Assembly (NCBI GenBank): GCA_015163875.1
Contig: JAAOIH010000002.1
Location: forward strand, 17,574-81,573
Direction: 5' to 3'
Source: Bdellovibrionales bacterium
GTDB taxonomy: Bacteria; Bdellovibrionota; Bdellovibrionia; Bdellovibrionales; UBA1609
DNA length: 64,000 nt
Shown here one piece after another: positions 2,388-31,972 of the stretch; position 1 is the stretch's first letter; each line of letters begins with the position of its first letter. The notes beneath the pieces are model-generated. The model searched no databases, had not been told where the DNA came from, and worked only from the letters and a program-made list of their open reading frames with translations. A program made the translations under genes and the position numbers.

Positions 2388-3851
2388 TTATTGTTTTAAG
2401 TTAAACTTTTTTCTTATTTTGTCAGAACCTGCACTTGCAGAACTTTTTATTAACGGAGTTATAAACACAACAAACTGTGATTGCTTTCTTTGAAAAGATT
2501 TAGAGGCGTGCAGTGGTATAATAGGATTTTTAACAGACCCAGATGGCAACTTGTTATAAAAAGTTCCAGACTCATTTGTAATTAATCCAGCCATTGCAGC
2601 GCTGTGCCCATTTTTAACTACTAAACTTGTTTTTATATTGTGACCAGCAGTTAGCGGCCCATCAGAACTTTGGCTAACCAAAGAGTTTACTTCAAAATTT
2701 ATTTGTAACTGAATACTGCTAGATGCAGAACTTATAATAGTTGGAGTAACGCTACTTTTTAAACCTACCGTTACAAAACTTGTACTAATACTATCACCAG
2801 TTCCTGTTAAATAAGGAATACTAGATTGTGAATTTAAAGCTCCCTCTACTCCATTTTCTGTAACAATACTTAGGCTTTTTAAAACACGAGCGTGACCATG
2901 CTCTTTTGCCCAATTTAATTTTGGAAGTAAATTACTAATAGTGGCCTTTAAAATAGATGCAGTATTACGACCTGTTTCTAAACTTAATTTTGTATCAGAT
3001 GACAAGCTTGGTCTCCAGCTAAAAGCAAAACCTTTTGCATAATCTTTATTTAATTCTACATAATGAAAAACTAATTGAATTAATTTTTTTCTTTCAACAG
3101 GCTTTGGAGGTATTTTTACAATTATTAAATCAATAATATCTAAAGTTTTTCTTTTTTGTACCTTTTGGCCATCACCTTCGTTTAATATAATATCTGGAAC
3201 ATAAGTTTGGGCCAATAAAAATGCTCTTCTTTTATCTGCAACACTAGTTACAACTCCCTCTAAAAGAAACTTTCCATTAATTGCACGAACATGCACTTCG
3301 GGATTATTAATTGCTCTTTCTATTAATTTAGAAATTTTGTTTTGCGCCAAAGGGCTAAGAGTAACTAATGATGTAGACTGCTCTGGATATTGATTAATAA
3401 CACTTAAAATACGATTCATATCTGTTGGAATTAAAATTTCACCATCTACGATAACAGTATTATTAATAATTTTAATACTAATTCCCTCTATATCTTTTAA
3501 CAAACTTTGAATATCTTTTGCAGCCTTGTGTAAATTAGTTTTTTTAATATCAATACGAAATTCATAAATCACATCACCAGTTTTAGGATTTTTTACAAAC
3601 AATGTTCCTACACCTGTTTTTTTTGGATACAATCTTAATAACTTTCTTTTTGGATTATATTGCAAACTTAATAAACTTCTATAAGTACCGCCCTTAGAAA
3701 AAGTTTTTCCTGATTTAGGAACTGGGACATCTCTGTAAACACCAACAGATAAAGACAAATACTTTATTGGATGTTTATCTTTTGCTGCCAAATTTAAATT
3801 TGGAAGTAAAATAATAGATAGTAAAAAAAGAAAAATATTTTTTTTATACAT
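2388..3851 (-). CDS. cpaC: CpaC/RcpA-like secretin with BON-like domains
   Basis: Signal peptide, BON-like segments (INNTVIVDGEI, INGKFLLEGVV), secretin C-terminus (HARVLKSLSIVTENG, QFVVFITPLI), Tad context. Confidence 0.82.
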   Translation of the reverse strand: MYKKNIFLFLLSIILLPNLNLAAKDKHPIKYLSLSVGVYRDVPVPKSGKTFSKGGTYRSLLSLQYNPKRKLLRLYPKKTGVGTLFVKNPKTGDVIYEFRIDIKKTNLHKAAKDIQSLLKDIEGISIKIINNTVIVDGEILIPTDMNRILSVINQYPEQSTSLVTLSPLAQNKISKLIERAINNPEVHVRAINGKFLLEGVVTSVADKRRAFLLAQTYVPDIILNEGDGQKVQKRKTLDIIDLIIVKIPPKPVERKKLIQLVFHYVELNKDYAKGFAFSWRPSLSSDTKLSLETGRNTASILKATISNLLPKLNWAKEHGHARVLKSLSIVTENGVEGALNSQSSIPYLTGTGDSISTSFVTVGLKSSVTPTIISSASSSIQLQINFEVNSLVSQSSDGPLTAGHNIKTSLVVKNGHSAAMAGLITNESGTFYNKLPSGSVKNPIIPLHASKSFQRKQSQFVVFITPLIKSSASAGSDKIRKKFNLKQ

Positions 3852-16484: not shown

Positions 16485-17273
16485 TTAAGATTTTTTTCCT
16501 TCAGTAGAGCCATCTTTTTTTGCATCAGCAGATTTATCACCAGAAGATTTTGCATCAGCAGATTTATCGCCAGAAGATTTTGCATCAGCAGATTTTGCAT
16601 CATCAGGTTTGTCGCCAGAAGTTTTTGCATCAGCAGAAGCTGGGGTATCTGCAGGACTAACTGCCTCAACAACTTCTTCTACCTCTTCTTTTTTCTCAGA
16701 AACACTTGCTAAAGTTGTAGAAAGCTCTGTTAAAATTTTAACATCTGTTAAATTTAATTGTTTAGCTAGTTGCTCAACTGTAAAAGAGTCACCAGCTTTT
16801 AAGTCAGCTAAATTAATTACAGCAGATTCTGGAATACTAGTAGGTGAGCATTCTATGCTAATATTTTTTTGAGCTATATTAGCTTCTAAGTTATTTTTTT
16901 GTAGCTCGTCTATGCCTTCAAAATTTAAATCTAAATCAACAACAATATTTTCTTTCATATTAAGAGCATAAAAATCCATGTGAACAGGCTCTCTTTTTAC
17001 TGGATGAATATTTGTGCTTTTGCATAATACTTTTAAGTCATTTAATTTTTTGTCTTCTGATTCTAATTGAAAAATTTCGTTATTGTATTTAGATGCAGAA
17101 TATTTAATAGAATCTTGTATGCTAATACAAAAAATTTGATTTTCAGTTTTTGGCCCATAAACTACTGCAGGAACTTTTTTGCCAATACGAATAGCTTTTG
17201 AATTTTGCCTTCCTGATTCCCTAGAAAATGTTGTGATTTTAATAAAACTACTCATAAATTGCTCCTCATACAA
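16485..17273 (-). CDS. rplY: 50S ribosomal protein L25/Ctc with repetitive C-terminal tail
   Basis: R..G.VPAVVYG, HPV..EPVHMDF, located in the prs-rplY-pth cluster; true start may be the ATG a few codons in. Confidence 0.9.
   Translation of the reverse strand: MYEEQFMSSFIKITTFSRESGRQNSKAIRIGKKVPAVVYGPKTENQIFCISIQDSIKYSASKYNNEIFQLESEDKKLNDLKVLCKSTNIHPVKREPVHMDFYALNMKENIVVDLDLNFEGIDELQKNNLEANIAQKNISIECSPTSIPESAVINLADLKAGDSFTVEQLAKQLNLTDVKILTELSTTLASVSEKKEEVEEVVEAVSPADTPASADAKTSGDKPDDAKSADAKSSGDKSADAKSSGDKSADAKKDGSTEGKKS
16513..16636. repeat. 30-bp in-frame repeats encoding (KSADAKSSGD)n in the L25 tail
   Basis: TTTTGCATCAGCAGATTTATCGCCAGAAGA-type units read directly. Confidence 0.85.
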
Positions 17274-17336
17274 TAACCTAATAAATAACGCAGTATTTTT
17301 TTACTATTTTTAGTCTAAAGAGTCAATATTGCAGCC

Positions 17337-18287
17337 CTATTGAAACAACGAGCTAACTGATTGGTTATTTTGAATATTGTAAATCGCCTGAGACACAAGC
17401 TTACTAACAGATAAAACATGAATTTTTTTAGAAGATTTTTTTAAAGGTATTGTGTCTGTAACAAAAACCTTAGCTAGGCAGCTATTTTCAATACGCTCTA
17501 TAGCAGGATCAGATAAAATAGGATGAGTCGCCATTGCATAAACTGCCTTTGCTTTGTTTTTTAATAAAACCTCGGCAGCCTGAGTTAAAGTGCCAGCAGT
17601 GTCAATCATGTCATCAATAATTATAGCAACCTTTCCCTCTACATCTCCAATTACCTGTAAAGCTTTTGCCTTGTTAGGATTAATTCTTTGCTTGTCTATA
17701 ATTCCAATATTACATTTTAATTTACTAGCAAATGCCCTTGCTCTTTCTACCCCTCCAGCATCGGGGCTAATTACCACGCAATCTTCGCCCTGTAGCTTTT
17801 CTTTTTCAAGCCACTCTTTAGCAAGAACTGGAACTGCAAATAAATTATCAACTGGTATATTAAAAAATCCTTGAATTTGTGTTGAATGTAAATCAACAGA
17901 TAATAACCTATTTGCACCAGAAGTTTCACAAAGTTGCGCAACAGCTTTGGCAGAAATTGGAGCCCTTGGACTAACTTTTCTATCTTGTCTTGCGTATCCG
18001 TAGTAAGGCATAACAACAGTAATTTCTGAAACAGAGGCCCTTCTTAATGCATCAAGTGTTAAAAATAATTCCATATAATGTTCATTGGAGGGGGGGCATG
18101 TACTTTGTATTACAAAACAATGACAACCTCTAACAGTTTCATTAATTTCAATTTGAATTTCTCCATCTGCAAAACGAGAAATAGAGCAATCAGCAAGCTT
18201 GCTATCAAGATGCTCTGCAACTTTTTTTGCAAATGCTGGGTTAGAGTTTCCAGAAAAAAGTTTAAATTTTGTAGAATTTGTTTTCAT
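17337..18287 (-). CDS. prs: Ribose-phosphate pyrophosphokinase
   Basis: FADGEIQI, PYYGYARQDRK, VISPDAGGVERA, IIDDMIDTAGT. Confidence 0.97.
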   Translation of the reverse strand: MKTNSTKFKLFSGNSNPAFAKKVAEHLDSKLADCSISRFADGEIQIEINETVRGCHCFVIQSTCPPSNEHYMELFLTLDALRRASVSEITVVMPYYGYARQDRKVSPRAPISAKAVAQLCETSGANRLLSVDLHSTQIQGFFNIPVDNLFAVPVLAKEWLEKEKLQGEDCVVISPDAGGVERARAFASKLKCNIGIIDKQRINPNKAKALQVIGDVEGKVAIIIDDMIDTAGTLTQAAEVLLKNKAKAVYAMATHPILSDPAIERIENSCLAKVFVTDTIPLKKSSKKIHVLSVSKLVSQAIYNIQNNQSVSSLFQ

Positions 18288-18400
18288 ATGTAATTTTCTT
18301 TATGTAAATTTTCTTTATGTAAATTTTCTTTATGTTAAATTTCTTTATGTAAATTTCTTTATGTAAATTTCTTTATGTAAATTTCTTTATGTTAAATTTT
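18288..18400. repeat. 14-15-bp tandem repeat (ATGTAAATTTCTTT, about 8 copies) filling the rph-prs spacer
   Basis: Read directly; the last unit abuts the prs start codon. Confidence 0.92.
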
Positions 18401-18403
18401 ATA

Positions 18404-19135
18404 TTAAGCTTTATCCAAAGGAAAAAAATCACCAATAATAGATTTTTGTTTTTCAAATAATTCCATACTTGTTGATTGAGCTAATTCTGACATTTTTTGT
18501 AATTGCTCAAAACTAAAATCTTTTTTTTCTGCAGTCCCTTGTATTTCAATAAACGCATTGCGATTGTTCATAACAAAATTCATATCAACAGCAATTCGCG
18601 AATCTTCTTGATAGTCTAAATCTAATAAAATATCCTCTTTATCAATTCCTATACTAACTGCTGCAATATAAAAATTTAAAGGTATGTGACTTATTTCACC
18701 TTTTTGGTGAATAAAATTTAAAGCTAACGCAAGTGCAACAAATCCTCCAGTGATAGCAGCTGTTCTTGTTCCTCCATCAGCTTGCAAAACATCGCAGTCT
18801 ACAAAAATTTGTTTTCCAGGAATTGCCTTTAAATCAATGCAAGATCTAAGACTTCTTGCAATAAGGCGTGAAATTTCTTGAGACCTTGCACCAGATAAAG
18901 CTTTTTCTCTTTTTATTCTTGTATGAGTTGCCCTTGGAAGCATAGAATATTCAGCCGTTAGCCAGCCCTGATTTTTGCTATCCAACCATTTGGGGGTATT
19001 TTTTTCAACAGTAGCTGTACATAAAACCTTTGTTCCCCCAATAGTAATAAGCGCGCTACCCTCGGCATAAGAATTAGGATCTGTTGTAATAGACAGTGGT
19101 CGCAACTGATTTAAAGCTCTTTGACTAGTTCTCAT
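18404..19135 (-). CDS. rph: Ribonuclease PH
   Basis: AEGSALI, GWLTAEYSMLPRAT, EISRLIARSLR, DCDVLQADGGTRTAAITG. Confidence 0.97.
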   Translation of the reverse strand: MRTSQRALNQLRPLSITTDPNSYAEGSALITIGGTKVLCTATVEKNTPKWLDSKNQGWLTAEYSMLPRATHTRIKREKALSGARSQEISRLIARSLRSCIDLKAIPGKQIFVDCDVLQADGGTRTAAITGGFVALALALNFIHQKGEISHIPLNFYIAAVSIGIDKEDILLDLDYQEDSRIAVDMNFVMNNRNAFIEIQGTAEKKDFSFEQLQKMSELAQSTSMELFEKQKSIIGDFFPLDKA

Positions 19136-19225
19136 AATGAGATTACCTTAGCCAGACTCTGTGTTTTTGTAAACCAGTTTATATAAATTACACAAAATAT
19201 TTTACAAAATAAAAGGAATTAAACT

Positions 19226-20257
19226 TTGATTATCAAAAAAAACATTAGCGACTCTGTAGCAGTTTTAACTTTAAACAGAGCAGAGTCTTTAAACGCCCTA
19301 AGTACTGAAATGATACTTTCGCTTAAATCTCATTTAACAGATTTAGAAAAAGACAAATCTATAATTGCAATAGTAATAAATAGCTGTTTGCAAAAAGCTT
19401 TTTGTGCAGGGGGCGACATTGTAGATGTGTGCAAAGACATTCGTGATAAAAAAATTACAAAAGCTAATAAATTTTTTAGACAAGAATATGACATGCATAT
19501 TTTATTAAGAACTATAAAGACTCCAGTTATTGGAATTGCAGAAGGCTTTTCTATTGGAGGGGGATTAGGATTATTAAATTCTTGCAAATACAAAATAATT
19601 TCAGAAAGCTCGCAAGCCTCTATGCCAGAAGCATTGATTGGCTTTTTTCCAGATGTTGGTGCATCTAATTTTTTGTCTTCTTCTAAATTTGGTTTATTTT
19701 TAGGGCTAACCTCCCAAAGAATAAAAGCTTCTGATATGTTGCTTTGTAAATTAGCAGATTACTTTATTCCATCAAAAGATATTGATAAGTTGTTTAAATT
19801 TTTATCTACAGCAGATAGTTTAAATTTTACAGAACTATTAAATCAAAAATTAAAACTTTTAGACAAACGAGACATTTTAGAAGATGGAAATTTAATAAAA
19901 AATAAAAATTTTATAACAGAAGTTTGTAAAGCCAAATGCATAAAAGATTTTGATAAAAAATTAAATTCATACAGCGGAGACAGTGCTTGGATTTTAAAAG
20001 CAATAGAAAATTTTAACTACGGATCAAAACATTCTTTAAAATTTATTTTTGAACAATTAAAACAAAATCGTAATTGGGATTTAAAAAAACTTTTTGATAA
20101 AGAATATAAAATGGCTTTATATTTTTCAGAACATAATGATTTATTAGAGGGAGTAAGGGCTTTGCTAGAAGACAAAGACAAAGCTCCTGTATGGAAAGAT
20201 AGCTTATATAATAGTGTAGATATCCCAAATGATATTTTAAAAGAATTAAATAGTTAA
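19226..20257 (+). CDS. 3-hydroxyisobutyryl-CoA hydrolase-like crotonase-family protein
   Basis: TLNRAESLNALS, AFCAGGDI, MPEALIGFFPDVG, EGVRALLEDKD..P.W; TTG start. Confidence 0.88.
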   Translation: MIIKKNISDSVAVLTLNRAESLNALSTEMILSLKSHLTDLEKDKSIIAIVINSCLQKAFCAGGDIVDVCKDIRDKKITKANKFFRQEYDMHILLRTIKTPVIGIAEGFSIGGGLGLLNSCKYKIISESSQASMPEALIGFFPDVGASNFLSSSKFGLFLGLTSQRIKASDMLLCKLADYFIPSKDIDKLFKFLSTADSLNFTELLNQKLKLLDKRDILEDGNLIKNKNFITEVCKAKCIKDFDKKLNSYSGDSAWILKAIENFNYGSKHSLKFIFEQLKQNRNWDLKKLFDKEYKMALYFSEHNDLLEGVRALLEDKDKAPVWKDSLYNSVDIPNDILKELNS

Positions 20258-20275
20258 TAAAAAAATGGAGAAAAA

Positions 20276-21073
20276 ATGTTATTAAAAGAATATAAAAATT
20301 TATTAGTCACTAAAGAAGACAAAATTTTAACAATTAGTATTAATCGTCCAAAAGTATTAAACGCATTAAACCAAGAACTATTGTCTGAGTTAAAAACTTT
20401 ATTAACTTTAATAACAGACACAGATTTTAAAGATTTAAGGGGAGTTATTTTAACCTCAGAGGGAGAAAAAGCATTTATTGCAGGTGCTGACATAAAAGAA
20501 ATGGACGGATTAGAAGACGACAAGGCTTCTGACTTTTCTGCCCTAGGACAAGAGGTAAGTTTATTATTTTCTAAAGTTAAAGTTCCAGTTATTGCATGCG
20601 TTCAAGGTTATGCATTGGGAGGTGGGTGTGAAATGGCAATGTCTGCTGACTGGATTTACGCTACAGAAAACGCAATTTTTGGTTTGCCAGAATTAAGCTT
20701 GGGATTAATTCCTGGATTTGGAGGAACAAAAAGATTGGCGCAATTTGTTGGACTTGCAAAAGCTAAAGAACTTATTTTTACAGGAGGCAAGTGGACAGCT
20801 GCCGATGCTTATAAAAATTTATTAGTAAACAAAGTTTTTGCAAACAAAGAAGAAATGTTATCTTTTGCAAAAAAACAATTATTAAAATCAGAAAGACAAT
20901 CAGCCCTTGGAGTTTTTTATTCTAAAAAAACAATGGAAGAATCTTATTTTTGCAATATGCAAGACTCAATGTCTATAGAAAAAAAATCTTTTTCTGCAAT
21001 CTTTTCAAGCAAAGACAAACGCACCGGAATAAAAGCCTTCCTAAACAAAGAAAAACCAAACTTCCAATACTAA
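20276..21073 (+). CDS. Enoyl-CoA hydratase (crotonase)
   Basis: INRPKVLNAL, AFIAGADI, GYALGGGCE, PELSLGLIPGFGGT. Confidence 0.92.
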   Translation: MLLKEYKNLLVTKEDKILTISINRPKVLNALNQELLSELKTLLTLITDTDFKDLRGVILTSEGEKAFIAGADIKEMDGLEDDKASDFSALGQEVSLLFSKVKVPVIACVQGYALGGGCEMAMSADWIYATENAIFGLPELSLGLIPGFGGTKRLAQFVGLAKAKELIFTGGKWTAADAYKNLLVNKVFANKEEMLSFAKKQLLKSERQSALGVFYSKKTMEESYFCNMQDSMSIEKKSFSAIFSSKDKRTGIKAFLNKEKPNFQY

Positions 21074-21077
21074 AAAT

Positions 21078-21285
21078 GCACACCTGACCCCCAAACCAAA
21101 CCAAACCCCCTTTGAGGGTCAGGTACACCCCCCTCTAAACAGGGGCCTGCCGACCAAGTCAAACCAAACCCCCTTTGAGGGTCAGGTACACCCCCCTCTA
21201 AACAGAGGCCTGCCGACCAAGTCAAACCAAACCAACTTTGAGGGTCAGGTACACCCACTAAATAGGGGTGTACCTGACCCTCAAA
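21078..21285. repeat. REP-like locus A: degenerate half-site, three 63-bp-spaced arms and a terminal palindrome
   Basis: TTTGAGGGTCAGGTACAC at 21111, 21174 and 21237; reverse arm at 21268-21285; degenerate reverse arm at 21078-21095. Confidence 0.93.
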
Positions 21286-21287
21286 TT

Positions 21288-22685
21288 TTACCTAAGAATA
21301 ATATTGGCAATATCAACAACAATAAATAAAAATGATACCTGCACAATGGATTTATATGCCCCAATAGTTATTGGTATAATTGATAGGGGTATTTTTGTTT
21401 TAGAATTGTAATTAAAATTTTTTGTAGAAGCTGTTAGTTTAGAAGAAATATTTTCTATTCTGCTCATATTAAAATTTAAATCATAAATAGTTTCCCTGAG
21501 CATTTCTCTCACTTTAGAATGAGAGTCCCATGTTTTGCTAGTTTTTAATATCACGGCTAAAACATATTCAATATCGTAAATAAATTGTTGTATTTTATCG
21601 GAAGTTTTTCTATTTTCTGTTTTTATAAAATTCTCATAACTTTTATGATATGTATTTAGATTATCAAGCAAAGGCTTAAAGGTGTTACTCATCATTTCTG
21701 CCCCTATTGTGGTGCGAAGCTTCCATAAAATATTAGAAATCATCATAGAGTTTTCATGATTCATTCCAGAACGAATATCCAACAAAGATGTACGCCTATT
21801 TACATCACCTTCATGTCGCGCAACCCTTTCTTCAATATTGCGAAGAGGTGTATTGTCTTTATTAATTTTACCTATTTGTGGATTATTTAACATATGAGCC
21901 GCTCCAAAATCTGCAATGGCTTCATTCATAAAACTTTTGTTAACATAGGCAGGTATTGTGTAAGTGCTATGCATTAACGAATGAGTTCTTTCGTGGTACA
22001 GTATTGATTCACTCTCTACTGCGGCTTTATTACCGAACAAAGGATTCATAACAATAACTGTCTTTAGCTTTGGCGACCAGATATTTATTACAGGAGGGCC
22101 TATTGAGTGTGGACCACTTGCTGATGAATTATTAACGATTACACGGGTGATACTAGGTTTTTTAAATCCCATTTTCATCATAGTTTTATCAAAACTATCC
22201 AGGTTATTTGCTATTTTTTGTCCTATTTTTTTGGAATTTTTTAAATCTCCAACAACTTCTACAGTTTTATTATTTTTTGCTAATAAGCGATAAGGCCTAA
22301 CAAGAAGTTGTGCCCAAGATGTGTCTAGTAACATGACTCTAAGAACATCCTTAAGCTCTGTTAAAACTTCTTTTACAGATAAAGATGTAGTATCTTTTTC
22401 TAGTTTTGCCCAATTCGCAATTTCATCTTCCTTATATATTTTGTCTTTTTTTAATCGACTATTAGTAAATTTTATAGATACCTGTTCAGCACTTTGATGA
22501 AGTTCTCTAAATTTCAAAGTTTGAATTACTGGGTCACCAGCAAGTTGCACTCTATATGTTTCTCCTTTTTGAAAAGAGCTTTCTTGTAAAGAAGAAAACA
22601 ATGAAGAACAGACTGGCTGAGCTTTCCCTTTAATAGGAAAATATAAACTAATAGTACAAAGAATTATAATTAAGTATTTAAACAT
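21288..22685 (-). CDS. Secreted gluzincin metallopeptidase (thermolysin M4 / fungalysin M36-like)
   Basis: Signal peptide from MFKYL (ATG 22685; ORF track starts at 22706); HERTH (HExxH), NEAIAD third zinc ligand, PLRNI, HENSMMISNILWKLR; hydrophobic C-terminus. Confidence 0.72.
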   Translation of the reverse strand: MFKYLIIILCTISLYFPIKGKAQPVCSSLFSSLQESSFQKGETYRVQLAGDPVIQTLKFRELHQSAEQVSIKFTNSRLKKDKIYKEDEIANWAKLEKDTTSLSVKEVLTELKDVLRVMLLDTSWAQLLVRPYRLLAKNNKTVEVVGDLKNSKKIGQKIANNLDSFDKTMMKMGFKKPSITRVIVNNSSASGPHSIGPPVINIWSPKLKTVIVMNPLFGNKAAVESESILYHERTHSLMHSTYTIPAYVNKSFMNEAIADFGAAHMLNNPQIGKINKDNTPLRNIEERVARHEGDVNRRTSLLDIRSGMNHENSMMISNILWKLRTTIGAEMMSNTFKPLLDNLNTYHKSYENFIKTENRKTSDKIQQFIYDIEYVLAVILKTSKTWDSHSKVREMLRETIYDLNFNMSRIENISSKLTASTKNFNYNSKTKIPLSIIPITIGAYKSIVQVSFLFIVVDIANIILR

Positions 22686-22750
22686 ACTTCTTAATGTGCA
22701 AGGCATAATCCAGTTATTGTTTCATAGTAAAACACTTTATAAAAAGTAAC

Positions 22751-22900
22751 TAACTTTGAGTAACTTTGAGGGTCAGGTACACCCCCCTCTAAACAGGGGC
22801 CTGCCGACCAAGTCAAACCAAACCAACTTTGAGGGTCAGGTACACCCCCTAAATAGGGGTGTACCTGACCCTCAAAAATTCTCAAAAATTCTCAAAAGTT
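22751..22900. repeat. REP-like locus B
   Basis: Arm at 22765; 49-bp palindrome at 22828-22876; 10-bp micro-duplications TAACTTTGAG x2 and CTCAAAAATT x3 (third copy one mismatch) at the ends. Confidence 0.93.
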
Positions 22901-22935
22901 TAGACACTTATAAGTGCCTGTATTTATTTTGAATA

Positions 22936-22981
22936 TTGACTTTTGTGCATATCTGTATTCTATATACAGATATGCACAAAA
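22936..22981 (+). promoter_or_regulatory. TTGACT -35 box plus an 18-bp-arm perfect inverted repeat covering the ATPase start codon
   Basis: TTTTGTGCATATCTGTAT-TCTAT-ATACAGATATGCACAAAA (22941-22981); ATG at 22972 has no Shine-Dalgarno sequence. Confidence 0.65.
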
Positions 22982-24126
22982 TAAAAAGAGATATCTTATC
23001 CTTAGTTGAAAAAAAGCTACAAAGTAATCCAGTAGTGGCTTTGCTAGGGCCAAGACAATGTGGAAAATCGACTTTAGCAAAAGAGTATTTAAAAACTAAA
23101 AAAGATACTGTTTATTTAGATTTAGAAAACGATCAAGATCGTTTTAAAATTAAAGATATTTGGGAATTTTTTAATTACCATAAAGAAAAATTAATTTGCC
23201 TTGATGAAATTCAAAGATTGCCAGAAATTTTTTCACAAATTAGATCTTATGTTGATCAATCTTCTGGCAATGGAAGGTTTCTTATTTTGGGGTCAGCATC
23301 TAGAGATTTAATTAAACAAAGTTCTGAAACATTAGCAGGAAGAATTTCTTATATAGAGATGGGGCCTTTTTCTTATAAAGAATTACAAGACACTCAGTGG
23401 TTAAATGAACATTTTATTAGGGGATCTTTTCCCCGTAGTGTTTTGGCCAAAAGCCATGAAGAAAGTTTTGATTGGCGTAAAAATTACATAAGAACTTTTT
23501 TAGAAAGAGACATTCCAAATTTGGGTTTTCGAGTCCCATCCTCTGTGTTAAATAATTTTTGGCACATGTTAGCTCACTTACAGGGGCAAATTTTAAATGC
23601 CGACAAATTAGGAACTTCTTTAGGAGTGACGGCACATACTGTAAAAAATTATATACATATTTTAAAAGAAACTTTTATGATTAGATGCCTGCCTGCTTAT
23701 TTTTTTAATACAAAAAAAAGACTAATCAAGTCTCAAAAAATATATATTCGAGATACTGGAATTGTTCATGCTTTGTTAAATTTAGATAGTATAGATAATT
23801 TATTAGGGCACCCTGTATATGGTTTTAGTTATGAAACTTATGTTATAGAAACTTTAATAAATCTTTATCCTCAACATGAAGCTTATTTTTTTAAAACCGC
23901 AAAAGGGGAAGAGATTGATTTAGTATTAATTAAAGGACAACAAAAAATAGCTTTTGAAATTAAAGCCTCTGCAGTGCCAAAAATAGAAAAAGGTTTTTGG
24001 TCTGCATTGGATATTTTAAAACCTGATGAAGTTTGTATTATAGCTAAGGTAGATAAAGATTACCCAATACAAAATGGAGTGATGGTTAAAAGTCTTTCTA
24101 GCGTTGTTTCTAGCACTAAAGTTTAG
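22972..24126 (+). CDS. AAA_14 ATPase with DUF4143 C-terminal domain
   Basis: LLGPRQCGKST, LDEIQ, LGSAS, ETLAGR, K.YIRDTG, YETYV, EEIDLV..FEIK; start placed at MHKIK (ORF track starts at TTG 22936). Confidence 0.9.
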   Translation: MHKIKRDILSLVEKKLQSNPVVALLGPRQCGKSTLAKEYLKTKKDTVYLDLENDQDRFKIKDIWEFFNYHKEKLICLDEIQRLPEIFSQIRSYVDQSSGNGRFLILGSASRDLIKQSSETLAGRISYIEMGPFSYKELQDTQWLNEHFIRGSFPRSVLAKSHEESFDWRKNYIRTFLERDIPNLGFRVPSSVLNNFWHMLAHLQGQILNADKLGTSLGVTAHTVKNYIHILKETFMIRCLPAYFFNTKKRLIKSQKIYIRDTGIVHALLNLDSIDNLLGHPVYGFSYETYVIETLINLYPQHEAYFFKTAKGEEIDLVLIKGQQKIAFEIKASAVPKIEKGFWSALDILKPDEVCIIAKVDKDYPIQNGVMVKSLSSVVSSTKV

Positions 24127-24164
24127 TTTAAATAACTGGACTAACAGAGGCACACAGGTCTAGC

Positions 24165-24230
<66 letters not shown>

Positions 24231-24274
24231 TGTGTATTATATTTATAGAAGCAAAAATAAACACAGGAAATTTT

Positions 24275-25549
24275 ATGAAATTTTTAGCACTACTATTAAT
24301 ATTTGCACTAAGTTCATGCAATGGCATGAAGTGGAAAACTTCAAAAAATACTAAACCAACTAGAAAAATAAGTTTACTAAAGAGAGATATTTCTTCAAAT
24401 AAAGGAACCTCTACAGCCACAACTAAAATAATTTCTGGTGTCGAATGCTATTTATCAGTAGAAAGAAATGGCAAAATAATAAGAAGAAAAAAATTTCGAG
24501 AGCCATTAGGAACTGAATTCCATTTTTCTTCTAAAGTTGAATCTGGTGAATTTTATGCAATGATAGACCATAACCAAGAACATAGTAGAATTGCAATAAG
24601 CTCAAAGGCTGAAGACCTTTCATGGTCGTTTATTCATAATGGTAAAAAAGCATCTACTATTAAGGTTGCAGATTGTAGGAAAATAAAAAGAAACAAATTA
24701 GGAGCTGTGATTCGCTGTTTCCCTTCTGGGCAAGGGAGTACAAAAATTACGAAGAAAATTTCTTTTGATTGTGAAAGGAACAATAATGATGATTCTGTGT
24801 ATACAAAGCATATTGATTCTTTCTATGCAACAGGTGAAAACTCTCAGGTGAGGAGGGCTCTTGAGATGCTTTCCAAAGTGCCTATCTCACTGTCCTTTAG
24901 AGGAAGAGGGAGTAGTAAGATTTATAAAGTTGATAATCACAATTTAGTTTTATTGAGATATTATAAGACCCCATATCCGGAAAAGACTTGGCAAAAAGAG
25001 GGAAATTATGCGAGTGGCATTTATGAGGTTACTGGAGGAAAATTTTGTGATGAAAACAGCGGGCTGTTCTGTACTCCTTCATATGGAGTGCCTATCTCCA
25101 TTTGTGTGGCCAGAAAATCTGGTGTTTTGGTCCCTAATGACGTGGAGAGCGGCAGAACTAAAAAAACAGTCGCAGACAGTCTTGTCAATTATTGGTGGTA
25201 TAACATGGTGTCAAACCTTAAGTCAGGATTAAAAAAAGTTTTTAACTACAATAAAACAGCATCTTCAAAACAACCAAAACTAGGAACACTACGACTACTT
25301 AGATATTCAAAAAACTTAGATGACGCCTTAAAATCTTCTTATGATAACGATACGCGACTTCTACCTGAAAAAAACACTCCCCATGCACTAAGTGGCAATT
25401 ATTATACAAAGTACGCCGGTGTCAGCGTTGGAGTGCCGAAATGCCGCAATGGCGTGTCAGTACTTATGGAACATTCACAAGTAGAAAAATTAGAAGTAGT
25501 GTTTGATAGACGATATGACTATAACAAAAATAGGAATAAGAAAAAGTAG
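24275..25549 (+). CDS. Uncharacterised lipoprotein, visibly more GC-rich than the host DNA
   Basis: ATG 24275 after AGGAAA; MKFLALLLIFALSSC lipobox; no family recognised (ORF track starts at TTG 24230). Confidence 0.7.
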   Translation: MKFLALLLIFALSSCNGMKWKTSKNTKPTRKISLLKRDISSNKGTSTATTKIISGVECYLSVERNGKIIRRKKFREPLGTEFHFSSKVESGEFYAMIDHNQEHSRIAISSKAEDLSWSFIHNGKKASTIKVADCRKIKRNKLGAVIRCFPSGQGSTKITKKISFDCERNNNDDSVYTKHIDSFYATGENSQVRRALEMLSKVPISLSFRGRGSSKIYKVDNHNLVLLRYYKTPYPEKTWQKEGNYASGIYEVTGGKFCDENSGLFCTPSYGVPISICVARKSGVLVPNDVESGRTKKTVADSLVNYWWYNMVSNLKSGLKKVFNYNKTASSKQPKLGTLRLLRYSKNLDDALKSSYDNDTRLLPEKNTPHALSGNYYTKYAGVSVGVPKCRNGVSVLMEHSQVEKLEVVFDRRYDYNKNRNKKK

Positions 25550-25592
25550 TTTGCTTCTTATTCTCATTGCTATGATGGTGCATACATACTTA

Positions 25593-25620
25593 GTGTACCT
25601 GACCCCCAAACAAATCTGAT
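25593..25620. repeat. REP-like locus C (single reverse half-site)
   Basis: GTGTACCTGACCCCCAAACAAATCTGAT. Confidence 0.85.
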
Positions 25621-25650
25621 TGGCCTACTTGCCAATACTTTCTTTGTTCG

Positions 25651-26836: not shown

Positions 26837-28747
26837 ATGTTTTGGTTTAAAAAAATAATATTAATTATTATAAGCTTATCATTTAGCACATCTGCTAAAT
26901 CTTACGACTCTTTTTTATCTAAACAAAAAAATATAAATCACAAATCTACTTTTTTTAACAAAGATTTTAAATTACTTTCAAACTTACCTATATTAAGAGG
27001 TGGTAGAATGCAGCCCTTAGGTGATTTTGCAAAATCTTTTTTAAGCAAAATTTACTCGCGAGATACTTACAAAAATAAATCTGCAATACAAGTTTTTTCA
27101 ATAATTTTATTTACACCAGAGCTAGCTAAAAATTTAAATATTTTTAATATTCCTTATCCAAATGTGATACATACGCTTGGATTAAAGTGGACAGCTAAAC
27201 ATCGCTACTCTTTTAATAACCTGATTAAAGGATTTCAAAAAAACTTTAAGTTAATTGAAGCTTTGTCTAAAGCCAAAAGAGATAAAATGAGCGTTTCTCA
27301 AAAACATATTATAGATGTGTATTATAATTTTATAAGTTTTTTTGATTTATCTCAAAGCTTAGCTTTAACTAATAAAAATTTAAGCTTATCTAGTAAAAAG
27401 TGGGCCAATAAATTAGGATTAAAAAAAAATACACTTTATTCTTATTTAGATTTGGCGGGGATTACATCTAAAACAAATTTTTTAGCAAAAAAACTAAGCA
27501 AAAAAAAATCTGTAAATAAACAAGATATTAATTTTTTACTTTTTGGGGCAAAACTACAAAAGCTAAGTGAATCTCAAAATTACTCATCAACTTTTAAAGT
27601 TATCCCCTCACAATGGAAATCTGGAAACTGGAATTCTTTATGGGGAACAATTTTAAATGGAGAGGCAACTCCAAATAGTTATGTTTTATTTAATTTATGG
27701 GGCAAAGTAAAAAAATCTTATTTAAAAAATAATTTATTAATATGGAAGCAGTCTTTACAAAAAATTAATTTACAGGGCCAAAAATTTTTAACACAAAAAC
27801 AAAAAAGACAATTAAGCATGGAGTCTTTTTATAGCAAATGGGATTTGCTTTATAAATCTACAATTTTATATATTTTATCTTTTGTATTTTTGTTGATAAG
27901 TTTATTACTTTTGCCAGCTATATTTTCTAAACTAGCTTTATTTTCTGTATATTTAGCAATGCTTTTGCATGGCATAGCTATTAGTTTGAGAATTTTAATT
28001 TTATCAAGACCTCCAGTAACTACATTATATGAATCTATTTTATTTGTAGGATTTGCAGGAGTGATTAGCGCATTTTTTTTATTAAAATCAAAAACAAGTA
28101 ACATTAATTTATTTATATCTAGTTTTTTAGGCTCAGCATTATTATTATTATCTTTTGGCTACGCACAAGGTAACGATACTTTTTCAACATTAGAGGCAGT
28201 TTTAAATACTAATTTTTGGCTAGCAACTCATGTGTTAATTATAACAATTGGTTACTCTGCTTGTTTTGTTGCTGGAATTTTAGGACATATTTATTTTATT
28301 AAATCTATATTTAGGCCAAACGAAAATTTACAAAAACTTTATAAACAAATGTTAGGAGTTTCTATTTTAGCCTTATTTTTTTCTTTATTCGGAACTATTT
28401 TGGGAGGTATTTGGGCCGATCAATCATGGGGAAGATTTTGGGGATGGGACCCAAAAGAAAATGGAGCATTGTTAATTGTTTTGTGGCTTTTATTTATGCT
28501 ACATGGAGTGTTAGCAGGAAAAATAAAAGCTCAAGGCTACGCGCTTGGAATGGTCTTTATAAATATTATAGTCGCAGTCGCATGGTTTGGAGTAAATTTA
28601 CTAAGTGTAGGCCTGCACTCTTACGGATTTAACGAGGGAGCTTTTTTTAATCTATTGCTGTTTTCATACACAGAATTAATTTTTGGCCTACTAGCCTACG
28701 CATGGATTAATTACAAAAATTATTGCCTTGATTTTAGTAAAAAGTAG
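26837..28747 (+). CDS. ccsA: Cytochrome c biogenesis protein CcsA/ResC with large N-terminal periplasmic domain
   Basis: RPPVTTLYES, NFWLATHV, WADQSWGRFWGWDPKE (WWD motif), GVNLLSVGLHSY. Confidence 0.93.
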   Translation: MFWFKKIILIIISLSFSTSAKSYDSFLSKQKNINHKSTFFNKDFKLLSNLPILRGGRMQPLGDFAKSFLSKIYSRDTYKNKSAIQVFSIILFTPELAKNLNIFNIPYPNVIHTLGLKWTAKHRYSFNNLIKGFQKNFKLIEALSKAKRDKMSVSQKHIIDVYYNFISFFDLSQSLALTNKNLSLSSKKWANKLGLKKNTLYSYLDLAGITSKTNFLAKKLSKKKSVNKQDINFLLFGAKLQKLSESQNYSSTFKVIPSQWKSGNWNSLWGTILNGEATPNSYVLFNLWGKVKKSYLKNNLLIWKQSLQKINLQGQKFLTQKQKRQLSMESFYSKWDLLYKSTILYILSFVFLLISLLLLPAIFSKLALFSVYLAMLLHGIAISLRILILSRPPVTTLYESILFVGFAGVISAFFLLKSKTSNINLFISSFLGSALLLLSFGYAQGNDTFSTLEAVLNTNFWLATHVLIITIGYSACFVAGILGHIYFIKSIFRPNENLQKLYKQMLGVSILALFFSLFGTILGGIWADQSWGRFWGWDPKENGALLIVLWLLFMLHGVLAGKIKAQGYALGMVFINIIVAVAWFGVNLLSVGLHSYGFNEGAFFNLLLFSYTELIFGLLAYAWINYKNYCLDFSKK

Positions 28748-28832
28748 ATTCAGATTTAATTATAAAGGCTCTCATGCTCAGGCATCCCTTCGGGCTGAGT
28801 CGCATGATAGCCTTTATAATTAAATCTGAATC
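28747..28832. repeat. 86-nt hairpin with a 24-bp perfect stem between ccsA and groES
   Basis: GATTCAGATTTAATTATAAAGGCT ... AGCCTTTATAATTAAATCTGAATC with a GC-rich inner stem and C(UUCG)G loop. Confidence 0.88.
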
Positions 28833-30907: not shown

Positions 30908-30996
30908 GCTTTTATTTTTGAAATAAGTTTTATTTTTGAAAAAAGTTTTATTTTTGAAAAAAGTTTTATTTTTGAAAAAAGTTTTATTTTTGAAAA
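30906..30996. repeat. 18-bp tandem repeat (AAGTTTTATTTTTGAAAA, 5 copies) starting in the groEL stop codon
   Basis: Read directly. Confidence 0.92.
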
Positions 30997-31012
30997 AATA
31001 AAAATAATCTCC

Positions 31013-31047
31013 AAAAAGACAGACCTGCCGGGTCTGTCTTTTTTTTT
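31013..31047 (+). terminator. Intrinsic terminator of groESL
   Basis: AAAAAGACAGACC-TGCCG-GGTCTGTCTTTTT followed by a T-run. Confidence 0.85.
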
Positions 31048-31157
31048 GAGGATCAGATTTGAGGGTCAGATTTGAGGGTCAGGTACACCCCCTAAATAGG
31101 GGTGTACCTGACCCTCAAATCAAACAAAATTAACTTTGAGGGTCAGGTACATATAAA
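31045..31157. repeat. REP-like locus D
   Basis: 13-bp degenerate duplications (31045-31070), 49-bp palindrome at 31071-31119, half-site at 31135-31151. Confidence 0.93.
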
Positions 31158-31158
31158 T

Positions 31159-31196
31159 TTGATTTCAAAGAATAAATAGTGTACATTGTACACTAT
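31159..31196 (+). promoter_or_regulatory. Toxin-antitoxin promoter and operator
   Basis: TTGATT-N17-TACATT; palindrome ATAGTGTACA-T-TGTACACTAT (31176-31196) covers the -10 box and the ATG at 31195, implying a leaderless mRNA. Confidence 0.7.
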
Positions 31197-31461
31197 GGAG
31201 CAGTTTAATTGGGATGATGAAAAAAATAATTTATTAAAAGCTAGCAGAAACATGAGCTTTGAACAGGTTTTAGATTGTTTTGAAAATGGTAATTTTTTTG
31301 GGGTTTACGAAAATCCTAGTAGTAACTTTTCTCATCAGGAAGTGTTTTTAGTTAAAATAAATGACTACCCTTGCATAGTTCCTTTTACAAAAAACAAAGA
31401 CGAAATATTTTTAAAAACAATAATACCAGATAGGCGGTTTAAACAATTTATCAAGGAGTAA
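31195..31461 (+). CDS. BrnT-like (DUF497-type) toxin
   Basis: MEQFNWDDEKN.L..SRNMSFE, YPCIVPF, FLKTIIP typical of this RNase toxin group; start placed at ATG 31195. Confidence 0.8.
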   Translation: MEQFNWDDEKNNLLKASRNMSFEQVLDCFENGNFFGVYENPSSNFSHQEVFLVKINDYPCIVPFTKNKDEIFLKTIIPDRRFKQFIKE

Positions 31462-31464
31462 GTT

Positions 31465-31794
31465 ATGAATAAAAAACTAAACAAGAAAGAAAAAGAAATT
31501 GCTGATAATTTTGTAAGTGGTAAATTTAAAAAAAAAGCTTCTTCAAGTAATTTTAAAGCTATGGCACAAAAAACAAAAGAATCTAGAATAAATCTTCGAC
31601 TGCAAGTTAATGTATTAGAGTATTTTCAAAAATTATCACTAAAAGAAGGAATACCATATCAAACACTTATAAACAGTGTGCTTTTTAAAGTGGCCTCAGG
31701 ACAAATGATAGAAGGTAAGTTTTCTGACTTTGCAAAAACCATTGAAGAGTTAAAAAAGCAAATTTCTAATATGAATCGCAAAAAGCAAGCCTAG
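31465..31794 (+). CDS. BrnA/CopG-like antitoxin
   Basis: RINLRL...EGIPYQTLINSVL ribbon-helix-helix signature, directly downstream of the toxin. Confidence 0.82.
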   Translation: MNKKLNKKEKEIADNFVSGKFKKKASSSNFKAMAQKTKESRINLRLQVNVLEYFQKLSLKEGIPYQTLINSVLFKVASGQMIEGKFSDFAKTIEELKKQISNMNRKKQA

Positions 31795-31818
31795 TAAATT
31801 TTGTTAGTTTGTCCAAGA

Positions 31819-31949
31819 CTTGAGTATCAGATTTGACTTGAGGGTCAGGTACACCCCCTAAATAGGGGTGTACCTGACCCTCAAATCACTCAAATCAAAC
31901 AAAATTAACTTTGAGGGTCAGGTACATATAAAATAGGTACATATAAAAT
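31819..31949. repeat. REP-like locus E
   Basis: Palindrome at 31838-31885, half-site at 31910-31926, 9-bp (CTCAAATCA) and 15-bp (AGGTACATATAAAAT) micro-duplications. Confidence 0.93.
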
Positions 31950-31972
31950 TTCAGTTAGAAAATCAGATGCAC

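Follow-up and report, generated by a model that had tools for sequence, protein, structure and literature searches.

Arrays of a lineage-specific REP family bracket a peptidase gene and other accessory genes in a reduced Bdellovibrionales genome

What does it mean when a single gene lies between two almost identical repeats, and do the repeats tell how the gene came to be there? The question is raised by a 64,000-nucleotide stretch of DNA (the window) from a Bdellovibrionales bacterium (assembly GCA_015163875.1, contig JAAOIH010000002.1, positions 17,574 to 81,573), in which a predicted peptidase gene is enclosed by two direct repeats of 112 bp. The initial annotation of this locus took the repeats to be repetitive extragenic palindromic (REP) units and proposed that the layout fits integration of a circle, carrying the gene and one unit, into a resident REP site. 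The repeats prove to be units of a lineage-specific REP family, and the reading that we favour is that arrays of this family are sites at which gene blocks insert or recombine. Coordinates without a contig number are window positions; G000 denotes this genome, G001 a sister species of the same genus, and C followed by a number a contig.

Alignment of the two copies (21174-21285 and 22765-22876, spaced 1591 bp apart) confirmed that they are direct repeats with 110 of 112 positions identical (111 of 113 when 21173/22764 is counted), the mismatches being at 21206 (A vs G) and 21257 (A vs C). Each unit opens with the arm TTTGAGGGTCAGGTACACCCC and closes with its exact reverse complement, with 70 nt in between, and the repeat ends read TTTGAG...CTCAAA; in copy 1 the two arms (21174-21194 and 21265-21285) show 100% complementarity. 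Pairing between the last arm and a third, internal one gives a 49-nt terminal hairpin with a 7-nt loop. Folded as single-stranded DNA, the hairpins reach z-scores of -6.3 to -6.8 (copy 1: -29.9 kcal/mol, z = -6.8), and the 20-nt arm has 14 matches in the window, where shuffled sequences give an expectation of 0. The left copy closes a longer array of 63-bp periodicity with one extra tandem unit, and a mirror-image partial arm, AACTTTGAG, stands immediately left of copy 2. As had been annotated, one gene is enclosed: the sole open reading frame (ORF) between the copies ends in a stop codon (21288-21290) that is separated from the palindrome end by 2 bp. The features of the locus are as follows.

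21082..21096, plus strand: private REP-arm variant ACCTGACCCCCAAAC at the left end of the island described below, a 15-mer with 2 occurrences in the 1.29-Mb genome
21097..21256, plus strand: tandem 63-bp REP units, 2.5 copies (Tandem Repeats Finder, period 63, 96% matches), with a linker, CCTGCCGACCAAGTCAAACC, confined to the peptidase locus
21174..21285, plus strand: direct repeat copy 1, similar to a REP doublet forming a hairpin (REPIN), its terminal arms inverted and 21 nt long, its terminal hairpin 49 nt long (21237-21285)
21288..22706, minus strand: gene for a predicted secreted, C-terminally anchored zinc metallopeptidase of thermolysin fold, 472 aa, probable start M8
22765..22876, plus strand: direct repeat copy 2, hairpin at 22828-22876
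22871..22897, plus strand: 10-nt stutter CTCAAAAATT, 2.7 copies, prolonging the REP 3' end (tandem-repeat scan)

A CRISPR-like reading of the 63-bp array was rejected, since the would-be spacers are identical, and an Rfam search gave sub-threshold chance matches only.

The 17-nt core of the arms, TTGAGGGTCAGGTACAC, is present in this 1.29-Mb genome of 30% GC in 75 copies at one mismatch or fewer and in 83 copies at three or fewer, falling in about 25 clusters on 13 contigs; a reversed control pattern gave 0 matches. Twenty-two of the 25 clusters are intergenic, the remainder being located at contig ends or in one doubtful ORF. The clusters take the form of hairpins, inverted doublets, tandem arrays and partial-arm stutters at their feet; hairpins with a 7-nt loop recur at many REP loci, and tandem local expansion is seen at C22:82724, C27:6878 and C11:140859. 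The canonical 5' GTAG/CGTC tag was not found next to the palindrome: the base pair 5' of the core is usually AC, and GTAG or GTCG was seen only as a subfamily-specific stem extension (CTAC...GTAG on C24, CGAC...GTCG on C26 and C35). The genome also encodes a 191-aa Y1/HUH protein (C35:2096-2671; PF01797, E 2.8e-15) with HFH and YxxxNP motifs, whose best NCBIfam model is NF047646 (REP_Tyr_transpos, 64.9 bits, compared with 19 bits for IS200 transposase). Its gene, a candidate REP-associated tyrosine transposase (RAYT), is single copy and has on both sides 183-bp arrays of the REP family found at the peptidase locus. A REP family together with a flanked single-copy Y1/HUH gene is the defining REP/RAYT (REPtron) arrangement (PMC2817692, PMC8266576).

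The family is confined to this lineage. In 389 other genomes of the class the core gave 0-1 chance matches each, and among the viral contigs searched two single 17-mer matches were obtained, which is chance level. G001 has no copy of the core, no RAYT and no comparable repeat family (its top GC-rich 14-mer has 9 copies, vs 76 in G000), so that REPs and RAYT are absent together in the one species and present together in the other. Among nine sampled members of the bacterial family with genomes under 2 Mb, the host is the only carrier of a Y1 gene. The repeats are thus units of a lineage-specific REP family of the REPIN or bacterial interspersed mosaic element (BIME) type, and the core family and the RAYT support their initial annotation as REP units. 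The single RAYT is presumed to be the processing enzyme of the family.

With the REP/BIME and RAYT systems of E. coli, Pseudomonas and Stenotrophomonas (PMC2817692, PMC3116915, PMC8266576), this system shares short, GC-rich, high-copy extragenic palindromes, inverted doublets with a spacing of about 70 nt (in SBW25 the starts of the conserved 16-mers lie 71 or 110 bp apart; PMC3116915), composite arrays, a lineage-specific REP sequence, a single Y1/HUH gene flanked by cognate repeats, and the joint presence or absence of repeats and gene. In Marinomonas, too, REPs have multiplied locally near tnpA-REP genes (PMC8266576). The system described here differs from the known ones in lacking the GTAG/CGTC tag, in its long (20-21 bp) and perfect stems, in its low copy number of about 80, in having subfamilies private to single loci and in its AT-rich, reduced host genome. 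It further differs in that its arrays are enriched at the borders of accessory DNA, whereas in Pseudomonas REPs characterise the core genome and the strain-specific DNA consists of "REP deserts" (PMC3390384). The element is of the REP/RAYT kind, but unusual in how it is distributed and laid out.

A comparison with G001, for which all of its 50 contigs were used, gave counterparts for 970 of the 1192 ORFs of G000 (median identity 78%). The order of genes in G001 is RNase PH, ECH_2, ECH_1 (a crotonase, 92% identical), a spacer of 155 bp and resB (78% identical), and a metagenome contig, VSKW01013655.1, likewise has the crotonase adjoining resB. Homology of the window to both ends at 21074 and restarts at 25629. 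What lies between consists, from left to right, of a REP array, the peptidase gene on the minus strand, a second REP array, an ATPase gene, a (TTG)23 run, an ORF of 439 aa and a single REP arm; as judged from these gene orders, the whole island of 4.55 kb is lineage-specific.

21075..25628, no strand: accessory island of 4.55 kb between the crotonase gene (ECH_1) and a resB-like gene, absent from G001:C27 and VSKW01013655.1
22936..24126, plus strand: ATPase with AAA_14 and DUF4143 domains (Pfam), candidate phage-defence protein PDC-S01 (PADLOC, E 2.4e-84), probable ATG at 22972
24165..24233, plus strand: (TTG)23 microsatellite, a perfect repeat, between the ATPase gene and the 439-aa ORF
24230..25549, plus strand: ORF of 439 aa without a family match, GC content at third codon positions (GC3) about 2.8 standard deviations (SD) above the genome mean
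25597..25611, plus strand: private REP-arm variant ACCTGACCCCCAAAC at the right end of the island

The variant ACCTGACCCCCAAAC occurs nowhere else in the genome than at these two outer ends, in direct orientation. A relative running crotonase, REP and ATPase without the peptidase gene, which the initial annotation had named as the arrangement to look for, did not emerge: G001 runs from the crotonase over 155 bp into resB and has none of the cassette genes, no REP family and no RAYT, and the postulated resident REP site was seen in no relative. The layout itself fits integration of a circle, insertion into a pre-existing tandem REP array, and later local copying or gene conversion equally well.

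The peptidase gene is single copy in the genome, is missing from G001 and has matches in 5 of 40 relatives, the best being 34% identical and from another family; in these respects it is accessory. Its GC and GC3 are native-like. The N-terminus of the predicted product resembles a signal peptide, and a long helix lies at its C-terminus. Searches of Pfam, NCBIfam and PDB sequences gave no match, and the family is small (about 136 cluster representatives among 1.8 billion). The motifs HExxH (H238, E239, H242) and NEAxxD (E262, D266) are at least 90% conserved among 50 aligned homologues, and an AlphaFold (AF2) model (pLDDT 89) gave Foldseek matches to the M9 collagenase 7zoc and to the M4 enzymes gentlyase and aureolysin (4ger and 1bqb) at a probability of 1.0 and E-values of 2e-4 to 3e-3, with low TM-scores of 0.27-0.57. 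The conserved motifs and the structural matches to M9 and M4 catalytic domains justify the label peptidase, and the model supports its assignment to the thermolysin-like gluzincins of clan MA(E) as a separate, unnamed family. No flanking repeats were present at the homologue loci L268 and L269. A perfect 21-nt direct repeat around the homologue of G028, considered as an att site, was rejected, as it equals a motif, AAAGAACCTGGAACCTTT, that is present in 23-35 copies genome-wide and is perfectly conserved in two species of another family (G028 and G040). Copies at the G028 locus (G028:C36) lie at 1393-1413 and 3037-3057, one of them about 95 nt upstream of the peptidase homologue, and the motif is probably the promoter or operator of a regulon.

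The association with accessory genes extends beyond this locus. Fifteen of the 22 intergenic REP clusters border at least one gene without an orthologue in G001, whereas such sites account for 21.5% of intergenic regions and 29% of intergenic bp (binomial p = 3e-6; bp-weighted p = 2e-4). In an all-against-all comparison of the clusters, the arrays on the two sides of four blocks were each other's best matches, in direct orientation:

Peptidase block: arrays match over 113 bp at 98% identity
brnTA block (window 31045-31949): 95 bp at 91% identity
hipBA block (C26): 194 bp at 93% identity
RAYT block (C35): 183 bp at 96% identity

The linkers in the arrays are private, each being found only at its own locus; the arrays around the RAYT gene are 88-93% identical to those around hipBA. 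The second block of the window is composed of three features.

31045..31160, plus strand: left REP array of the brnTA block, 95 bp of which are 91% identical to 31812-31949; private linker TCAAACAAAATTAAC found only here
31186..31794, plus strand: pair of a BrnT-like toxin and a BrnA/CopG-like antitoxin, between groEL and a gene for an FAD oxidase
31812..31949, plus strand: right REP array of the brnTA block, matching the left array

The spacer between groEL and the FAD oxidase gene (30908-31972) thus holds brnTA in G000 vs an unrelated secreted protein of 116 aa in G001 (G001:C14:194-890). A further island (end of C1 and C24:1-6516), between genes that are 72 bp apart in G001, contains another two ATPase genes of the PDC-S01 type alongside other ORFs, and each block junction in it carries a REP cluster. 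None of the seven clusters at sites between conserved genes has a copy in a neighbouring spacer; these clusters are unpaired. It was observed separately that the gene for the 116-aa protein in G001 is flanked by two similar terminator-like hairpins; the spacer is a variable cassette site in both lineages.

Could mis-joining at the repeat during assembly have produced the second repeat copy or put the peptidase gene between the arrays? Contigs of the metagenome-assembled genome (MAG) do break at REP arrays (the end of C1, the start of C35). The read data consist of Logan k=31 unitigs of two runs (X1 and X2) from one sponge sample, which cannot span or phase a 112-bp repeat and break at every REP array, including both arrays here; the peptidase unitig is the lowest in depth of the long unitigs (14.5 and 16.9, vs 17.7-24.8 and 17.6-30.1). 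An independent metagenome contig, JAAGOD010059075.1, covers 17221-21924 at 99.9% identity and crosses the whole left array into the gene, which makes the left junction independent of the MAG contig. For the right junction, support comes only from the MAG contig itself and from unitigs compatible with it: some leave the gene, enter the first arm of the right array and reach 22793, and others begin at 22847 in the right hairpin and continue into the ATPase gene. The gap in depth amounts to about 1.4 SD of the scatter between unitigs and was rejected as a sign of heterogeneity. An assembly artefact is, on this evidence, highly improbable.

Variation within the sample was seen at two positions: unitigs carry a base other than A at 21257 and X2 carries T at 21284, which indicates that two single-nucleotide differences in the repeat vary within the sample. 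A joint 22781>22829, skipping 47 nt, was rejected, since one side has just 21 nt and is explained by hairpins elsewhere. On C26 (8257-10688), a unitig of X2 (456 nt, depth 13.2) connects a REP array directly with unique sequence on the right side of hipBA and leaves out 1990 nt. This unitig differs from a simple crossover product and may represent a HipBA-less haplotype or an alternative array haplotype; it is the best lead for heterogeneity at REP-flanked blocks. Identity look-ups with the crotonase, ResB, peptidase and ATPase proteins, aimed at other strains, matched the same sample only.

The reading that we favour, and hold to be somewhat probable, is that the REP arrays are sites where gene blocks insert or recombine and that the pair flanking a block is a local duplicate of a private REP unit. 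The private variants shared by flanking arrays point to one local ancestor and not to separate insertions of a genome-wide master element. In an AT-rich, 1.29-Mb, Bdellovibrio-like sponge symbiont whose REP arrays for the most part border accessory and defence-type genes, the island would have entered the spacer between crotonase and resB after the split from the sister species, with the peptidase gene as one block. The gene block may have landed inside a pre-existing tandem REP array (route a), a circle carrying a REP unit may have recombined with a resident unit (route b, the model of the initial annotation), or the unit may have been copied or converted across the gene after its arrival (route c). 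We favour an origin coupled to insertion, by route (a) or (b), over route (c) because the duplication is nested (an outer island pair and inner cassette pairs), because the clusters number one more than the blocks and because the seven clusters at conserved sites are unpaired. We infer the order of events, any role of the RAYT and excision. Once in place, the 112-bp direct repeats would be a substrate for RecA, and a single crossover between them would remove the gene, with one unit left behind. The hairpin 2 bp past the stop codon would form a 3' stem-loop of the peptidase transcript; REPs form such stem-loops at the 3' end of mRNAs in E. coli, and the hairpin here is placed alike.

Several observations weigh against this reading. 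Insertion at REPs is deduced from a comparison of two species, and no polymorphism, empty site, circle or second copy of a block was seen. The outgroup G019 is not syntenic at the crotonase/resB locus and gives no polarity, so that loss of the island from G001 is possible. By its native-like GC and GC3 the peptidase gene is no recent foreign arrival, the clusters are statistically non-independent (several share an island), some neighbouring arrays in the C24 island are inverted and not direct, and the 64.9 bits of the RAYT are below the 80-bit equivalog cut-off of NCBIfam. In addition, seven REP clusters are located between conserved genes and, of the 184 genes without a G001 orthologue, about 160 have no REP in their vicinity, from which it follows that accessory status neither requires a REP nor is ensured by one.

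The points that speak for route (c), and so against an insertion-coupled origin, also bear on a different history, in which the genes stood at the locus beforehand (or disappeared from the sister lineage) and REPIN-type units later entered free spacers, nearby copies being made alike by short-range copying or by RecA-dependent gene conversion seeded on the 49-nt hairpin. The direct repeats would then be uninformative on the arrival of the gene. The genome is compact (mean intergenic length about 73 bp), with few permissive sites, mostly in accessory regions; tandem local REP expansion is common in it; the composition of the peptidase gene is native-like; and the within-sample variation at 21257 is compatible with ongoing conversion. 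Such a history fits poorly with the occurrence of ACCTGACCCCCAAAC at the two outer island ends only, with the inner arrays skipped. It leaves unexplained why the seven conserved-site clusters have no copy in a neighbouring spacer, and the REPs of Pseudomonas behave in the opposite way and avoid strain-specific DNA (PMC3390384). We consider it quite unlikely.

Are the REP-flanked blocks themselves mobile units? They could be mobilised by the RAYT acting in trans on the end hairpins, in an IS200/IS605-like "peel and paste" manner with a circular intermediate, or by circles that arise through recombination between two REPs and re-integrate at other REP sites. The RAYT gene shares the direct-repeat-flanked layout, with arrays close to those of hipBA; every junction between independent transcription units in the islands examined has a REP cluster; the unpaired clusters at conserved sites could be empty sites; and IS200/IS605 elements and REPtrons have a palindrome-bordered coding layout in common (PMC8266576). 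Yet none of the blocks has a second copy, the k=31 unitigs showed neither a circle nor an empty-site junction, and the linkers are private to their loci, whereas movement between sites should mix them. The orientation of the blocks relative to the arrays is not uniform, and as the REP family is found in no other sampled genome, donors would have to be conspecific. Published RAYT activities are restricted to cleavage and strand transfer on single-stranded REP DNA, and mobility of a tnpA-REP gene is not among them (PMC8266576). True mobile cassettes are for these reasons a rather unlikely account of the blocks, and active mobility of the cassettes is likewise a modest possibility at best.

Known mobile systems offer partial parallels. 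Elements of the IS200/IS605 type and their derivatives, such as palindrome-associated transposable elements and mobile insertion cassettes (PMC6006769), resemble the blocks in that a coding sequence is bordered by hairpins which a Y1/HUH enzyme could read on one strand, and in the occurrence of transposase-less cargo units beside one unit with a transposase. Here, however, there is no multi-copy unit, there are no defined left and right ends and there is no target tetranucleotide. We rejected an IS200/IS605-type transposon or a cargo derivative of one, as the peptidase, toxin-antitoxin and RAYT blocks are single copy with ends that are undefined despite hairpins at both. We know of no case in which a RAYT has been shown to transpose anything. 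In integrons, single promoter-poor genes lie between attC sites, imperfect palindromes that can fold as single strands, and the arrays carry toxin-antitoxin and other accessory genes. The blocks resemble these, and the repeat-homogeneous arrays of sedentary chromosomal integrons, in having single accessory genes between palindromes foldable as single strands, but there is no attI/Pc and there are no RYYYAAC/GTTRRRY core sites, the genes are in mixed orientation relative to the arrays and the same repeats also occur between core genes. An integron was rejected for want of an IntI; the PF00589 genes are two Xer-like ones with G001 orthologues, on other contigs.

That the arrays and the RAYT together make up a system, based on hairpins, which captures and shuffles gene cassettes, a functional analogue of the integron without an integrase whose blocks could be excised as circles with one REP, is a speculative proposal that we regard as unlikely. 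The same low standing applies to its corollary, that PDC-S01 ATPases, HipBA, BrnTA and the secreted peptidase were filed into REP "landing pads" of a reduced symbiont genome. The minimal mobile elements of Neisseria (Snyder et al. 2007, cited in PMC3082526) are different whole-gene cassettes found between the same two conserved genes in different genomes, and are exchanged by homologous recombination in conserved flanking genes with no need of flanking repeats. The spacers between groEL and the FAD oxidase gene (brnTA vs the 116-aa gene) and between crotonase and resB (the island vs nothing in G001) are sites of this appearance. The blocks described here differ in being bracketed by private direct REP arrays, and the comparison is between species and not strains.

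The ATPase of the island is one of six divergent (22-29% identical) AAA_14/DUF4143 paralogues in G000 that match PADLOC PDC-S01, none of which is present in G001; REP arrays adjoin four of the six.

PDC-S01-type paralogues: window 22936-24126; C24:3000-4178; C24:4313-5440; C26:5714-6907; C34:211-1143; C1:423-1199

The (TTG)23 run next to the ATPase gene overlaps a possible TTG start region of the 439-aa ORF; Logan unitigs break there, and the run may be a length-variable switch. Both genes for Xer-type tyrosine recombinases (C48:8811-9852 and C3:1456-2740) have an adjoining REP cluster or hairpin, possibly by coincidence. Elsewhere in the window, the spacer between the PRPP synthetase and RNase PH genes (18287-18400) contains a 14-15-nt tandem repeat of 7.8 copies, the length of which varies within the sample, as a 16-nt deletion at 18320 in run X2 indicates. 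A long palindrome with the GC-rich tip GCTCAGGCATCCCTTCGGGCTGAGTCGC is located between a cytochrome c assembly gene and groES (28745-28830); its core is present on at least six contigs of G001, making it a second hairpin family, older than the REPs and common to both species.

REPs and RAYTs are usually described as vertically inherited, located in old parts of the core genome and without cargo. The reverse holds for the young, species-specific REP family described here, whose arrays mark off single accessory and defence genes; the RAYT gene shares the layout of the cargo blocks, and the arrays beside a block are local duplicates. If REP arrays are not preferred points of gene entry and exit, this genome still illustrates cleanly how REPs multiply locally where a compact genome has its only permissive DNA. 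If they are, this would give a domesticated Y1 transposase a concrete role and would explain how a symbiont genome of 1.3 Mb keeps a flexible defence repertoire.

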